Below, piece by piece: positions 12,500-39,069 of a stretch of 43,437 nucleotides of DNA (position 1 is the stretch's first letter; every line of letters begins with the position of its first letter). Origin of the DNA: a virus (taxonomy: Duplodnaviria > Heunggongvirae > Uroviricota > Caudoviricetes); IMG/VR virus record IMGVR_UViG_2563366824_000005, positions 1 to 43,437 of that record. One strand, given 5' to 3'. The notes under the pieces were generated by a model. It made no database searches. It worked only from the letters and a program-made list of their open reading frames with translations, and had not been told where the DNA came from. The translations under genes were made by a program, and so were the position numbers.

Positions 12500-14131
<1,632 letters not shown>

Positions 14132-19844: not shown

Positions 19845-23525
<3,681 letters not shown>

Positions 23526-23551
<26 letters not shown>

Positions 23552-24071
23552 TCAGCAACCCCGGTATCAGTTCATCCAGCGCGGCTGCTTTGTTCATGGC
23601 TTTGATGATATCCCGTTTCAGGAAATCAACATGTCGGTTTTCCAGTTCCGGAAAACGCCGCTGCACCGACAGGGGGATCCCGTCGAGAATACTGGCAATT
23701 TCACCTGCGATCCGCGACAGCACGAAAGTACAGAATGCGGTTTCCACCACTTCAGCGGAGTCTCTGGCATTTTTCAGCTCCTGTGCGTCGGCCTGCGCAC
23801 GCGTAAGTCGATGGCGTTCGTACTCAATAGTCCCAGGCTGGAGATCTGCCTCACTGGCAGCCCTGTAATCCTCAACCTCTTTACGGAGTTTTTCATTTTC
23901 GATATCAGCTTCCCTCTGCGCATACCACTGAATTGCCATGGCGGTATCAAATCCAGATTCAACGCCCTTACCACCTCCGGAGACGCAAGGGAGTCCCTGA
24001 GACTGCCAGCGTTCAATCGTTCGCGGATCCACGTTGAAAATTTCGGCAAGTTTCTTTTTATTAACCTTCAT
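23526..24071 (-). CDS. Nu1: terminase small subunit Nu1, with phage-21-type N-terminal DNA-binding region
   Basis: 181 aa; residues from about 60 onward match lambda Nu1 as recalled; N-terminal HTH segment diverges. Confidence 0.9.
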
Positions 24072-24098
24072 GAAACAGTCTCACAATAAATACAGGGG

Positions 24099-24206
24099 CC
24101 GACATGAAAGTGCCCGAAAATGACTTTTTTAGGCGTTTCATGTCGGACCTTTTACGGATTCGATATTAGAAAAAACAAATAGTTATGTTCGAGAAGTACC
24201 GACATG
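24099..24206. promoter_or_regulatory. cosB with three terminase-binding R repeats (CATGTCGG), R2 inverted
   Basis: CCGACATG at 24099-24106 and 24199-24206, CATGTCGG at 24139-24146, between cosN and the Nu1 start. Confidence 0.6.
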
Positions 24207-24246
24207 ATTTTCCCCAGAAAATTTTCATAAATAGCGAAAACCCGCG

Positions 24247-24258
24247 AGGTCGCCGCCC
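24247..24258. other. cosN cohesive-end site (GGGCGGCGACCT on minus strand)
   Basis: minus strand reads GGGCGGCGACCTCGCGGGTTTTCGCTATTTATGAAAATTTTC, as at the lambda left end; opposite flank matches the lambda right end (CGTAACCTGTCGGATCACCGGAAAGGACCCGT). Confidence 0.8.
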
Positions 24259-24457
24259 CGTAACCTGTCGGATCACCGGAAAGGACCCGTAAAGCGATAA
24301 TGATTATCATCTACATATCACAACGTGCGTGGAGGCCATCAAACCACGTCAAATAATCAATTATGACGCAGGTATCGTATTAATTGATCTGCATCAACCT
24401 AACGTAAAAACAACTTCAGACAATACAAATCAGCGACACTGAATACAGGGCAACCTC

Positions 24458-24691
24458 ATGTCAACGAAGAACAGAACCCGCAGAACAACAACCCGCAACA
24501 TCCGCTTTCCTAACCAAATGATTGAACAAATTAACATCGCTCTTGTTCAAAAAGGGTCCGGGAATTTCTCAGCCTGGGTCATTGAAGCCTGCCGCCGGAG
24601 ACTGTGCTCAGAAAAAAGAGTTTCGCCTGAAGCAAACAAAGAAAAGAGTGACATTACTGAATTGCTCAGAAAACAGGTCAGACCAGATTGA
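24458..24691 (+). CDS. ribbon-helix-helix-like small protein (homologue of lambda right-end ORF p79, YlcI/YnfO family)
   Basis: 77 aa MSTKNRTRRTTTRNIRFPNQMIEQINIAL...; reads away from cos like the lambda counterpart. Confidence 0.6.
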   Translation: MSTKNRTRRTTTRNIRFPNQMIEQINIALVQKGSGNFSAWVIEACRRRLCSEKRVSPEANKEKSDITELLRKQVRPD

Positions 24692-24747
24692 AGCAATTTA
24701 GATAATCGTGCAGACTACCCCCCTCATATCACATGGAAGGTACTACA

Positions 24748-25158
24748 ATGGCTCAGATTGCCATTTTTAAACAAATATTCGATAAAGTGCGAAATAATTT
24801 AAACTATCACTGGTTTTATTCTGAACTAAAACGTCACAATGTCTCACATTACATTTACTATTTAGCCACAGAGAATATTCATCTTGTTCTTGAAAACGAT
24901 AATACGGTTTTAATAAAAGGACAGGGTAAGGTTGTAAATGTAAGATTTTCAAAAAATAAATGCCTTATAGAAGCCACCTTAAAAGGATTCAAATCAGGAG
25001 AGTTATCATTTTACGAATACAGGAAAAATCTTGCTACAGCAGGGGTTTTCAGATGGATTACAAATATCCACGAAAACAAAAGGTATTACTATACCTTTGA
25101 TAATTCATTACTCTTTACTGAGAACATTCAGAACACTACACAAATATTTCCGCACTAA
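24748..25158 (+). CDS. DUF1398-like protein (YbcV/YdfO-like)
   Basis: 136 aa from [14 protein letters not shown]...; AT-rich gene; GGAAGG SD 7 nt upstream of ATG at 24748. Confidence 0.55.
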
Positions 25159-25465
25159 ATCATAACGTCCGGTTTCTTCCGTGCCAGAACCGGACTCGCT
25201 GGCATGATGAAATATGTGTACCCGGTAACCCCGGTGTGCATCGTTTTTGATTATTCCCCCACACTTGTGCAGAAGGAGTTCCCCGTCAGGCTACAGTCAT
25301 AATTAATGCAAGAGTACAGCGACGATACAGCGCACAGAAATAAATCAGGTATCCATTGACTTCACAAAGACGGTACATAGCATCGACAGGAGTAATTGCG
25401 TAAATTGAACTCTTGGCACACTTTAGCCACCGGCGAATCTTCAGCGGATTATCCTTGGCCGGTTT

Positions 25466-25930
25466 TTATCTGAGGCATTGCTCTCGAATGTATAGCTGTG
25501 CCCCTTCAAGTTGTTTTTGCATTATTATCAGTCGCGCTCTGAGGGTGAAATAATCCCGTTCAGCGGTGTCTGCCAGTCGGGGGGAGGCTGCATTATCCAC
25601 GCCGGAGGCGGTGGTGGCTTCACGCACTGACTGACAGACTGCTTTGATGTGCAACCGACGACGACCAGCGGCAACATCATCACGCAGAGCATCATTTTCA
25701 GCTTTCGCATCAGCTAACTCCTTCGTGTATTTTGCATCGAGCGCAGCAACATCACGCTGACGCATCTGCATGTCAGTAATTGCCGCGTTCGCCAGCTTCA
25801 GTTCTCTGACATTTTTGTCGCGCTGGGCTTTGTAGGTAATGGCGTTATCACGGTAATGATTCAGCCCCAGACTAAGCGCACCACAGGCCACCAGCAGGGC
25901 AATGATGACCACGCACAGTACGCGGTTCAT
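25466..25930 (-). CDS. Rz: i-spanin Rz
   Basis: 154 aa with N-terminal TM segment and coiled-coil; lambda Rz-like. Confidence 0.8.
25528..25710 (-). CDS. Rz1: o-spanin Rz1 lipoprotein, embedded in Rz in +1 frame
   Basis: 60 aa with lipobox LVVVGC and PPPPP tract; near-identical to lambda Rz1 as recalled. Confidence 0.75.
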
Positions 25931-26228: not shown

Positions 26229-26762
26229 TTATCTGTCGATACCCCAGCACGCCAGCGCGCTCTCCTGGTCACGACGGGATACCTGACCGTAGCAGTTGTT
26301 TGAACGAATACGGCAGTCTCTGCCACCGTCCTTAATCCACCAGCGAATCGCCTCACACGCTCCCCTGCGATCACCTGCATTAATTCGTTTATAAAACGTC
26401 GACGGGAAACACTTACCGGGACCAATGTTGTACGGACAGAATGACGCGATCCCCGCTTTCTGGGGTTCGCTCAATGGCACTTTGATGTTTTTCTCCACCC
26501 ATGCCAGCGCCTTATCACGCTCAATGGCGTTGACCTGGTCGCATTTTTCCTTCGACAGTTTCATACCGGGAAAAACGGGTTTTCCATCCACCATCGTGGC
26601 CCCCCGACAGATGGTCCAGTTGCCGGAACCATCGCGGTATGCCGTAGTGTGGTTACCCTCTTTTTCATCCAGAAACTGGTCAAGTATCTGAGGAGCTGAT
26701 GCGCCTGCTCCAATCAGCGCCAGAACTGCAGCTGACAGGCCGTATTTGATTTTTGCGTTCAT
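26229..26762 (-). CDS. SAR endolysin (GH24 T4-type lysozyme with N-terminal signal-anchor-release domain)
   Basis: 177 aa; Gly/Ala-rich weakly hydrophobic N-terminus; catalytic spacing E-x8-D-x5-T in ...EKEGNHTTAYRDGSGNWTI... Confidence 0.85.
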   Translation of the reverse strand: MNAKIKYGLSAAVLALIGAGASAPQILDQFLDEKEGNHTTAYRDGSGNWTICRGATMVDGKPVFPGMKLSKEKCDQVNAIERDKALAWVEKNIKVPLSEPQKAGIASFCPYNIGPGKCFPSTFYKRINAGDRRGACEAIRWWIKDGGRDCRIRSNNCYGQVSRRDQESALACWGIDR

Positions 26763-28426: not shown

Positions 28427-28762
28427 ATGAAGTGGATTGTGATTGATACAGTTATCCAGCCATCATGCGGAATATCTTTTTCAGTCATATGGAGTAAAGT
28501 AAAATTAATAATCTGGTATCAATCGGATGCTTTCTTACCTCCTGAAAGTATATTTACACTGACTCACACAGGTATCATGCTCAATAACAAAGTGCTACCT
28601 GTAACCATTTACAACGTAGTACCATTCAATAAAACATTCTGGAATTTAATCAAAAACAGCCAGGAATGCCCTACAAATACAGATAACGTATTGAATGAAT
28701 GCTTTAATAACCGTTGCACTCTGCAAATATGTCCTTATGGACTAAAACAACAAAGTCCATAA
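28427..28762 (+). CDS. hypothetical Cys-rich protein (111 aa) in AT-rich moron
   Basis: AAGGAAG SD before ATG; AT-rich codon usage unlike flanking phage genes; followed by hairpin at 28797-28818. Confidence 0.45.
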
Positions 28763-28796
28763 GGAGTTTACTCACATCTGACAAAATCAATATAAA

Positions 28797-28818
28797 CAGC
28801 CCCTCCGGAGAGGGGCTG
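28797..28818. terminator. strong 9-bp GC hairpin (CAGCCCCTC-CGGA-GAGGGGCTG)
   Basis: perfect inverted repeat; U-rich tract on the minus-strand side only. Confidence 0.45.
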
Positions 28819-29209
28819 GAGAGTGGCGCTATGTGCCATTGCATGGTGCCGGGTGCCTCCCGGTGAATTCAGTACCAGCACCTGAATCCGCGATTATCCC
28901 ATATACCTACTCGCTGATTGCCCCTCCGCACAGGGGGATTCACCATGCCAGTTTCTTTTAACAAACTCCCCGCAAACCAGACAACAGTCAACCGCCTGAA
29001 TTGTGAAGTATTTAAAAATTTCTCCCGCTAACTGATACCCGGCTAACAGTCTGGCGTTTTCTTTTTCAGCAACGGGAAAGCAACAACCACCACACCCGCC
29101 ACCAGCACACCGTCAGCCAGCACTGACATTATCCGGCTGCTGCAATGCCATTCACAAAAACAGTAAGCAATCACTTTTTACCGTAACAGGTGATAATCCA
29201 GATATGTAT

Positions 29210-29673: not shown

Positions 29674-29750
29674 TGGCGCGCTGTACTGGATTCGAACCAG
29701 TGACCGATTGCTTAGAAGGCAATTGCTCTGTCCGGCTGAGCTAACAACGC
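29674..29750 (-). tRNA. tRNA-Arg (anticodon UCU)
   Basis: 77-nt cloverleaf GCGTTGTTAGCTCAGCCGGACAGAGCAATTGCCTTCTAAGCAATCGGTCACTGGTTCGAATCCAGTACAGCGCGCCA with encoded CCA. Confidence 0.85.
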
Positions 29751-29784
29751 TGAATACCGATAATGGACCGCCATCGGGGACCCG

Positions 29785-29795
29785 CCCCCCCCCCC
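29785..29795. repeat. homopolymeric C11 (G11 on minus strand) tract between the two tRNA genes
   Basis: cccgccccccccccccgcacc at 29781-29800. Confidence 0.9.
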
Positions 29796-29856
29796 GCACC
29801 AACACCCCTGTTATCGTGTCGTCTGCTCTTCCTGATAAGCTAATGGCGGTTTGTGA

Positions 29857-29932
29857 TGGTGGCCCTTGCTGGATTTGAACCAGCGACCTGGCGATTATGA
29901 GTCGCTCGCTCTCACCACTGAGCTAAAGGACC
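29857..29932 (-). tRNA. tRNA-Ile2 (anticodon CAU, ileX/ileZ-like; would be called tRNA-Met by anticodon alone)
   Basis: 76-nt cloverleaf GGTCCTTTAGCTCAGTGGTGAGAGCGAGCGACTCATAATCGCCAGGTCGCTGGTTCAAATCCAGCAAGGGCCACCA, resembles E. coli ileX. Confidence 0.8.
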
Positions 29933-33068: not shown

Positions 33069-33224
33069 TTACTCCTCAGGTTCGTAAACTGTGAAGACAG
33101 CGACCTCCGTCTGGCCGGTTCGGATTCGTACCTCGCAGAGGTCTTTCCTCGTTACCAGTGCCGTCACTATGACGGTTAAACAGATGACGATCAGGGCGAT
33201 TAACATCGCCTTTTGCTGCTTCAT
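33069..33224 (-). CDS. hokD: Hok-family type I toxin (HokD/RelF-like)
   Basis: 51 aa MKQQKAMLIALIVICLTVIVTALVTRKDLCEVRIRTGQTEVAVFTAYEPEE; AAGGAG SD; below track length cut-off. Confidence 0.85.
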   Translation of the reverse strand: MKQQKAMLIALIVICLTVIVTALVTRKDLCEVRIRTGQTEVAVFTVYEPEE

Positions 33225-33481
33225 AGCCTGCTTCTCCTTGACCTTTCGGTCCGTAAGAGGCTAATCTCTATGTGTCGCATAGATATGGCCTCAGATTAAT
33301 GTTAAACGTCTTGCAGGACGCGTAATGTTACCTGGGGCTTTTCTCTATCTGCCGTTGGTGTTCATGCCCGAGGCAGATAGCCTCAAGCACCCGCAGTCAT
33401 TCTACTTAACTAAGATTTCCCCGCAAACCGTTTTTGTCCAGCACAATAAATATCCAACTAAACCAATGGAGTTCGCTGTAT

Positions 33482-39011: not shown

Positions 39012-39069
39012 TTTCTGGTGACGTTTGGCGGTATCAGTTTTACTCCGTGACTGCTCTGCCGCCCTTTTT
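39012..39069 (+). ncRNA. dicF: DicF small regulatory RNA with its terminator
   Basis: TTTCTGGTGACGTTTGGCGGTATCAGTTTTACTCCGTGACTGCTCTGCCGCCC followed by TTTTT matches K-12 DicF as recalled. Confidence 0.8.

Follow-up and report, generated by a model that had tools for sequence, protein, structure and literature searches.

The gap between the lysis genes and the cos site of a Qin-like lambdoid prophage holds two small genes, which are probably independent, separable and host-regulated accessory genes of the 'moron' type, not a toxin-antitoxin or regulator-effector module. The first, ynfO, belongs to the YlcI/YnfO (DUF3950) family and the second to the DUF1398 family (ydfO/ybcV/lambdap78); together they are an allele of ynfO-ydfO in the Qin prophage of Escherichia coli K-12. 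Both are genuine genes under purifying selection, they occur and recombine independently, and their pairing is not obligate. The locus is already known and annotated, and it is an ordinary accessory locus. Most E. coli genomes, and lambda too, carry the pair or one half of it, neither protein has an assigned function, and both genes still stand in the E. coli 'y-ome' list as uncharacterised (PMC11551758). The separability of the two genes removes a tempting but wrong toxin-antitoxin label, and an equation of ynfO with lambdap79 is corrected below. In addition, placing the published Fur, FNR and PdhR sites before ynfO and DUF1398 is a new synthesis and provides testable regulatory hypotheses for both genes. 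The only feature with the potential to lead somewhere new is the strict position of YlcI beside two unrelated packaging modules.

Layout and identity of the locus

The window, by which we mean the whole stretch of 43,437 nucleotides that was analysed, is a lambdoid prophage of the Qin type; its late operon occupies the minus strand, and the prophage retains the full Nu1/A and head genes (Table 1). A 100%-identical 1.5-kb segment lies in the chromosome of E. coli WP8-S18-ESBL-07, where it is annotated alike, and PGAP labels for the exact window sequence are 'ynfO: YlcI/YnfO family protein' and 'DUF1398 domain-containing protein'. Since the direct junction of the two genes (24600-24850, at least 80% coverage) is found in 2174 of 5426 complete E. 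coli genomes (about 40%), the pair is one that is already annotated. The cosN segment AGGTCGCCGCCC is the reverse complement of GGGCGGCGACCT, the lambda sequence, and its flanks match the left and right ends of lambda; the region was also aligned computationally to the lambda right end. The segment marks the ends of the phage genome.

The first-pass annotation had described two genes at these positions, 56 bp apart, the second AT-rich and both reading away from cos and opposite to the late operon. These observations hold. Family matches and dN/dS values support both genes, and the GC content is 31-34% in the DUF1398 gene and 43-45% in ynfO compared with about 52% on either side. The plus strand carries both genes, which lead away from cosN and run antisense to the late operon, with Nu1/TerL and Rz/lysozyme on the minus strand. 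The spacing of 56 bp follows from the use of 24748 as the DUF1398 start, which is the RefSeq choice, is preceded by a GGAAGG Shine-Dalgarno sequence and is the point at which homologue alignments begin. An Rfam search found no RNA family within 23900-25600.

Table 1. Positions of genes and sequence elements around the lysis-cos gap of the window
Feature	Position	Strand	Remarks
Large terminase subunit (TerL/A)	21626-23551	-	
Nu1	23526-24071	-	
cosN cohesive-end segment	24247-24258		AGGTCGCCGCCC; between Nu1 and ynfO, 200 bp upstream of ynfO
Fur box (a pair of overlapping sites, offset 6 bp)	24290-24314		GATAATGATTATCATCTAC, 15-16/19 to consensus; TAAAGCGATAATGATTATC, 14/19 to consensus
Inverted repeat, candidate operator	24356-24388		ATCAATTATGACG-N7-CGTATTAATTGAT; 13-nt arms, 85% complementary; right arm overlaps FNR box
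Perfect FNR box	24384-24397		TTGATCTGCATCAA; centre 67.5 bp upstream of ynfO ATG
-10-like GACAAT	24419-24424	+	transcription start would fall near 24432
ynfO-type YlcI/YnfO (DUF3950) gene	24458-24691	+	77 aa
PdhR box	24672-24688		AACAGGTCAGACCAGAT; in last ynfO codons; left edge of conserved DUF1398 unit
-10-like GATAAT upstream of DUF1398	24701-24706	+	kept in lambda; putative promoter element; coincides with the breakpoint against Qin (about 24700)
DUF1398 gene, ydfO/ybcV/lambdap78 family	24748-25158	+	136 aa; alternative ATG at 24733
Rz	25466-25930	-	
Lysozyme	26229-26762	-	

The product of the first gene is a member of the YlcI/YnfO family, with matches above the curated cut-offs of PF13132 DUF3950 (2e-20; 72.8 bits, cut-off 25) and of NCBIfam YlcI_YnfO_N (NF041551; 35.2, cut-off 30), together with a match to phrog_949 (6e-33). 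Conservation covers residues 1-50, which are Arc-like (NIRFP...GSGNFSAW), the tail is variable among phages, and the first 50 codons compared with Stx-phage copies give dN/dS values of 0.06-0.10 at dS 0.8-1.5. The protein had been called a ribbon-helix-helix (RHH) protein, and this fold is a plausible and reasonable but putative reading of the sequence. In hhalign, a 15-sequence YlcI alignment set against Arc, Mnt, CopG, ParD and NikR places residues 13-53 in the expected RHH register, but only at P = 0.056. HMMER searches of YnfO (phmmer and hmmsearch against PDB; Pfam) returned no RHH family or RHH PDB chain, and neither hmmscan at E <= 10 with 15 family members nor BLASTP against Arc gave anything significant for RHH. 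YnfO has no match in PADLOC-DB.

The second product is a DUF1398 protein of the YdfO/YbcV/YcgX group, matching both the family model (PF07166, 3e-43) and the solved structure of YdfO (PDB 2HH8, 2e-69), for which YdfO was made on its own for NMR. Its alleles show dN/dS values of 0.2-0.4. It is soluble, with a duplicated alpha2-beta3 architecture, an orphan fold (PDB 2HH8) and no signal peptide; AF2 modelling reached a pLDDT of 89 with a 40-sequence alignment that included distant enterobacterial homologues, against 46 with a shallow alignment of 16 sequences. No toxin- or defence-family match and no toxin fold match was found for it. Matches to HEPN_AbiA_CTD (E 0.013; 15.9 bits against a cut-off of 27) and to Csx23, its sole PADLOC-DB match (E 0.026, 12.6 bits), fall far below threshold and disagree with the fold, and both were taken as chance matches; matches to anthranilate synthase and globins, far under threshold and equally inconsistent with the fold, were also taken as chance. 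The family is a small one (188 clusters at 50% identity, many of them fragments), and in a scan of one genome per species it occurs in Enterobacteriaceae only. Viral-contig scans with single proteins brought up nothing below 97% identity and thus no diversity. Database proteins that seem to fuse both domains (P0010, P0014) have W at the position of the ynfO TGA, most likely an effect of gene calling with TGA read as Trp.

The closest counterpart is the cryptic Qin prophage of K-12 MG1655, in which nohA is followed by ynfO (b4533, 234 bp), a gap of 57 bp and ydfO (b1549, 411 bp). The window matches Qin at 88.6% identity over 1028 bp, and 75 of the 77 YnfO residues are identical to those of K-12 YnfO. 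Gene order, strand, gene lengths and the place between nohA (a Nu1 homologue) and the lysis genes are all shared, as are the cores of the Fur box, the inverted repeat, the FNR box and the PdhR box. The gap is 56 bp in the window rather than 57 bp, which means that the two open reading frames of the window are not in the same frame.

Lambda and DLP12 share with the window the N-terminal domain of YlcI, a DUF1398 gene with its upstream block from the PdhR box on, the cos-proximal region with Fur and FNR boxes, and the antisense orientation. In contrast to the window and Qin, they carry about 540 bp with the opposite-strand gene ybcW/lambdap79 between the two genes, so that the order is ylcI, ybcW/p79 (opposite strand), ybcV/p78 and bor/borD. 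The window lacks bor, and the lambda YlcI, at 64 aa, has a shorter tail. The label 'p79/YlcI-like' in the first-pass annotation was therefore a conflation: lambdap79 (47738-47944, plus strand of lambda) is ybcW-like and lies on the strand opposite to the YlcI homologue, and the true homologue is a 64-aa open reading frame at 48109-48303 (complement) that is absent from the NC_001416 annotation. An old name for this frame, 'orf-64', was considered and rejected, as it denotes lambdap73, an unrelated gene between Q and S. The DUF1398 gene of lambda is lambdap78, annotated with an over-long GTG start. Lambdap79 has been reported to activate the Vulcan defence system, and escape mutants lose lambdap79, likely via recombination with the Qin prophage (bioRxiv 10.64898/2026.09.04.749371). 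Such a recombination would turn the lambda architecture into the arrangement seen in Qin and the window.

Independent occurrence and recombination of ynfO and DUF1398

The two genes had been presented as a conserved two-gene module, and in E. coli the direct junction is indeed common, with the 77-aa form of YnfO present in 2169 genomes as against 2174 for the junction. However, each gene is also widespread without the other. A tblastn search of 50,697 phage records found YlcI in 155 and DUF1398 in 43, figures that, like those for E. coli, are separate counts and not intersections. Stx-converting and related phages carry YlcI without DUF1398, as a lone antisense gene beside an HNH-TerS-TerL packaging module, and HK97-like packaging contexts likewise carry YlcI alone. 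Conversely, YlcI, Nu1 and Rz are all missing from the 5 kb around 33 diverged chromosomal copies of DUF1398 in Kluyvera, Pseudocitrobacter, Citrobacter, Salmonella diarizonae and Escherichia species. Klebsiella also carries DUF1398 without YlcI, and look-ups in Klebsiella, Kluyvera and Pseudocitrobacter found the gene monocistronic and in unrelated neighbourhoods.

Comparison with Qin places a boundary between the genes themselves. Nucleotide identity is 96-100% over 24250-24700 and then falls to 62-88% across DUF1398; dS is 0.03 for ynfO and 0.67 for DUF1398, whose two alleles share only about 75% protein identity. The drop in identity and the contrast in dS point to a mosaic or recombination breakpoint near 24700, between the two genes. 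Furthermore, partial junction matches in E. coli begin at query positions 72-76, corresponding to 24671-24675, the left boundary of a DUF1398 unit that is conserved in its own right.

The surroundings of the pair are variable as well. The contents of the gap between Rz and cos differ among the window, Qin, lambda, DLP12 and Stx phages, and the gap is a general insertion site that accommodates bor, ybcW, KilA-N and TonB-like genes. Two features of morons are present, namely a variable and dispensable insertion between late-gene blocks, and in DUF1398 a base composition unlike that of the surroundings. In lambda, lambdap78 is non-essential by CRISPRi and dispensable for plaque formation (PMC10695390).

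Regulatory elements and expression in the prophage state

The relevant elements upstream, including the Fur and FNR boxes, are shared by Qin, DLP12 and lambda, and they are absent upstream of the YlcI genes of Stx phages. The Fur box has no second match in the window, where 0.00 would be expected by chance, and its core is identical in Qin, DLP12 and lambda. In K-12, the 'nohA' and 'nohB' Fur sites of Qin and DLP12 score 22-25 bits, and the nohA site was gel-shifted by Fur (PMC2189734). The FNR box is the single match in 43 kb, against 0.05 expected by chance; FNR ChIP-chip peaks at 'nohB' and 'nohA/ydfO' fall on the same site in K-12 (PMC1802558). Between Qin and the window, one base flanking the conserved core of the site differs. 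The Fur and FNR sites were originally credited to nohA, nohB and ydfO rather than to ynfO or ylcI. They lie about 160 bp and 67 bp, respectively, upstream of the ynfO start codon. With GACAAT as the -10 element, the FNR box would be centred at -41.5, a class II geometry. Since the Fur site was credited to nohA/nohB and its distance upstream from the proposed ynfO start is about 127 bp, it may serve another promoter. The inverted repeat, which is identical in Qin, DLP12 and lambda, is a candidate operator on the strength of its sequence.

The PdhR box is kept in its core in all four loci (the window, Qin, DLP12 and lambda). By sequence this core motif is not distinctive, with 20 matches in the window against 16 expected, so its relevance depends on published data: the same 17-mer is the PdhR gSELEX site between ynfO and ydfO, a related one lies between ybcV and ybcW, and deletion of pdhR lowered ybcV and ybcW mRNA about 10-fold (PMC7660256). 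The evidence for PdhR as an activator is a single RT-qPCR comparison, and there is overlap of the box with a putative -35 region, an arrangement more typical of repression. A default promoter scan found nothing on the plus strand upstream of ynfO or DUF1398, a relaxed scan gave weak candidates only, and a default terminator scan found no intrinsic terminator after either gene.

Expression in the lysogen, suggested earlier from orientation, is plausible: both genes run against the late operon, and homologous copies are transcribed in the prophage state. For example, in the cryptic prophages of K-12, overlapping ybcW-ylcI transcripts are seen in half or more of the RNA-seq samples (PMC12288877), and an ionic liquid raises ydfO expression about 100-fold (PMC4077768). 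Overexpression of YdfO is reported, in work cited by the latter paper, to raise resistance to oxidative stress.

Alternative readings and comparison with known systems

If ynfO and DUF1398 are neighbouring accessory genes in a dispensable lysis-cos gap, antisense to the late operon, host signals in the lysogen would switch them on separately: anaerobiosis through a class II FNR promoter with a start near 24432, iron through Fur, and pyruvate through PdhR. YnfO may form an Arc/Mnt-like ribbon-helix-helix dimer that binds DNA, with the inverted repeat in its own control region as the likeliest target, and DUF1398 might bind a host protein in the cytoplasm and shift stress physiology. Neither gene would be required for lytic growth. 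The direct ynfO-DUF1398 junction would be one of two interconvertible architectures, the other having ybcW/lambdap79 in between. Given the lack of a terminator between the genes and the wide spread of the junction (2174 genomes), the two may be co-transcribed when so arranged.

Co-transcription is at the centre of the first alternative, in which a Qin-type operon combines a regulator with non-toxic cargo, and YnfO, by autoregulation, sets the level of DUF1398. The common strand, the short gap free of terminator-like sites, the nearly equal numbers of genomes with the 77-aa YnfO form and with the direct junction, and an upstream inverted repeat that could serve as operator are what such an operon would look like. 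We nevertheless consider it unlikely. The DUF1398 gene of lambda and DLP12 keeps its own upstream block from the PdhR box on, with ylcI some 600 bp off and beyond an opposite-strand gene, and it is in this separated arrangement that PdhR affects ybcV (PMC7660256). Moreover, phages lacking DUF1398 still conserve YlcI, and recombination has broken the sequence between the two genes.

Another reading gives weight to the position of YlcI, which in all contexts examined is a lone antisense gene that directly adjoins the first packaging gene on its upstream side and diverges from it. It does so in two unrelated modules, Nu1/A (the window, lambda, Qin, DLP12 and 2H10) and HNH-TerS-TerL (Stx phages, JLK-2012 and 569R3), and the accessory genes listed for Enterobacter capsid-forming PICIs, elements that encode TerS/TerL, also include YlcI (PMC13612085). 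YlcI/YnfO might then be tied functionally to the packaging region, with DUF1398 as an unrelated passenger: an Arc/Mnt-like repressor would silence stray transcription into the terminase genes, or bind near cos, in the lysogen. The very strong purifying selection on the DNA-binding-like domain (dN/dS 0.06-0.10) is in keeping with such a role. However, lambda-type and Stx-type contexts do not share the DNA upstream, Fur and FNR boxes included, the lysis-cos gap also takes in genes such as bor, ybcW, KilA-N and TonB-like genes, and the region is reported to be dispensable in lambda. The constant position could reflect a role tied to the packaging region or, equally, a shared insertion hot spot, and we regard the functional tie as rather improbable. 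An extended form of this idea, to which we give still less credence, would make YlcI/YnfO a universally placed Arc/Mnt-like repressor that links anaerobiosis and iron (FNR, Fur) to the silencing of terminase and cos cleavage or to the lysogen programme, with DUF1398 as exchangeable cargo. It would cover lambdoid phages and phage satellites at the lysis-packaging junction, with cargo under or next to the switch.

The likeness to a toxin-antitoxin pair, which had been pointed out together with that to regulator-effector pairs, is not supported by the comparisons above. YnfO would be an RHH antitoxin and autorepressor and DUF1398 the toxin that it neutralises, and the layout is inviting: a small putative DNA-binding gene comes first, a gene of about 130 aa follows on the same strand after 56 bp, and the junction recurs in 2174 complete E. 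coli genomes. Against this, YlcI and DUF1398 occur independently on a large scale, an opposite-strand gene separates them in lambda and DLP12, and divergence is very different on the two sides of the breakpoint near 24700. DUF1398 has an orphan fold that matches no toxin family or toxin fold, its genes in Klebsiella stand alone at seemingly core chromosomal positions, and YdfO was expressed alone for NMR and is reported to be protective on overexpression. A toxin-antitoxin pair is therefore very improbable. A prophage cassette for anti-phage defence or counter-defence is barely credible: the site is an accessory-gene hot spot next to the variable lambdap79, which a defence system senses, and HEPN_AbiA_CTD and Csx23 gave weak sub-threshold matches, but nothing passes PADLOC or Pfam thresholds, the alpha/beta fold has no HEPN or nuclease similarity, and stand-alone chromosomal copies lie among housekeeping and stress genes. 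Overall, the first-pass annotation is partly confirmed in what it observed and partly supported in how it was interpreted, and two independent accessory genes are the probable explanation.

Three known systems help to place these genes. Type II toxin-antitoxin systems such as ParD/ParE and RelB/RelE are superficially alike in gene order and sizes, but their obligate co-occurrence, recognisable toxin family and co-evolution are missing here. The Arc/Mnt genes of P22 (immI, inside the late region) offer a second comparison. Residues 13-53 of YnfO can be laid over the strand-helix-helix of Arc with no gap (NIRFP against NLRWP), both have a G-x-S turn ahead of helix 2, and ynfO, which likewise stands among late genes, is probably also expressed in the lysogen; on the other hand, the similarity is not significant (P 0.056), and the window has no adjoining antirepressor gene. 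The bor and lom genes of lambda encode outer-membrane proteins with phenotypes, whereas DUF1398 is soluble and lacks a signal peptide, and no terminator was found after either gene of the window. In other respects bor and lom are like this pair: they are dispensable, they sit between late-gene blocks in antisense orientation, they share with DUF1398 an atypical base composition, and expression from the prophage under host regulators is probably common to them and the pair.

Reading frames and the palindrome at the ynfO–DUF1398 gap

In the Qin copy (L224 2488-2550), ynfO and ydfO share one reading frame and are separated by only one TGA and 19 codons. Two database proteins that appear as "fusions" of both domains (P0014 and P0010) carry W where the ynfO TGA falls, and they most likely arose from gene calling under a code in which TGA is read as Trp. 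In the window (24689-24750) the gap is 56 bp, so ynfO and the DUF1398 gene lie in different frames, and the read-through fusion is therefore not conserved. A palindrome spans the ynfO stop codon (see table). Without a T-run, it does not qualify as a classical terminator; protein binding or the formation of an RNA hairpin would be possible roles for it.

Database labels and lambda DNA in unrelated assemblies

The DUF1398 proteins are labelled "head protein" by PHROGs (phrog_413) and RefSeq, and "putative envelope protein" in older records; neither label for the DUF1398 gene (24748-25158) finds support among the results here. The protein is soluble, lacks a signal peptide and has an orphan fold; DUF1398 is also found as a stand-alone gene on the chromosomes of several genera.

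Assemblies from unrelated organisms, among them Pseudomonas, Kitasatospora, Brevibacillus, Flavobacterium and Bradyrhizobium, contain DNA of the lambda right end (contig matches L164-L184, L186 and L195-L198), and YlcI proteins are also assigned to Staphylococcus, Bacillus and a spider (proteins P0135, P0147, P0179 and P0202 are cited for this). Many of these contigs measure ~3.5 kb or ~48.4 kb, lengths consistent with lambda DNA used as a sequencing control or spike-in. ENA proteins of variable length, numbering in the hundreds, derive from contigs of roughly 3.5 kb and resemble reads full of errors from one and the same fragment.

Small RNAs and accessory genes of the prophage

The small RNA and tRNA genes (see table) confirm a Qin/dicB-type lambdoid prophage that is rich in small regulatory RNAs. 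Two further accessory genes of the same prophage, an IraM-like gene and a 90-aa ORF, also lie on the + strand, antisense to the late genes.

Features located in the window, with one lambda gene for comparison
Feature	Position	Strand	Remarks
isrC	13567-13689	-	Rfam/ARAGORN
Imperfect palindrome, ~45 bp	24657-24701		CTGAATTGCT ... AGCAATTTAG, flanking PdhR core GGTCAGACC at ynfO stop codon
Sigma-70-like site, TTGACT-16-TAGCAT	25356-25383	+	directed into Rz 3' end
Hypothetical ORF, 90 aa	26868-27140	+	inside lysis cassette; overlaps YdfR-family gene antisense
IraM-like anti-adaptor gene	~28427-28762	+	directly past lysis cassette
STnc100	28788-28977	-	Rfam/ARAGORN
Two tRNA genes, Arg-tct and Met/Ile-cat	29674-29932	-	Rfam/ARAGORN
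sok	33222-33392	-	Rfam/ARAGORN; with hokD in related strain
DicF	39013-39064	+	Rfam/ARAGORN
lambdap79/ybcW	lambda 47738-47944 (L001, lambda record, 2339-2545)		not present in window

Gene content compared with lambda and DLP12

The Vulcan NADase defence system is reportedly triggered by the lambda gene lambdap79/ybcW (bioRxiv 10.64898/2026.09.04.749371), a trigger that would be missing from prophages carrying the Qin-type junction. In a lambda CRISPRi screen the gene scored as "essential" despite its known dispensability, a score that may stem from polarity, the late transcript being blocked on its way to Nu1/A.

Downstream of the DUF1398 gene, the sigma-70-like site is followed by no ORF. In lambda and DLP12 the DUF1398 gene is followed by bor, whereas in the window bor is not present in this interval (25159-25465), which consists of ~200 bp with homology to the spacer between p78 and bor in lambda, joined to ~100 bp of other sequence before the end of Rz.
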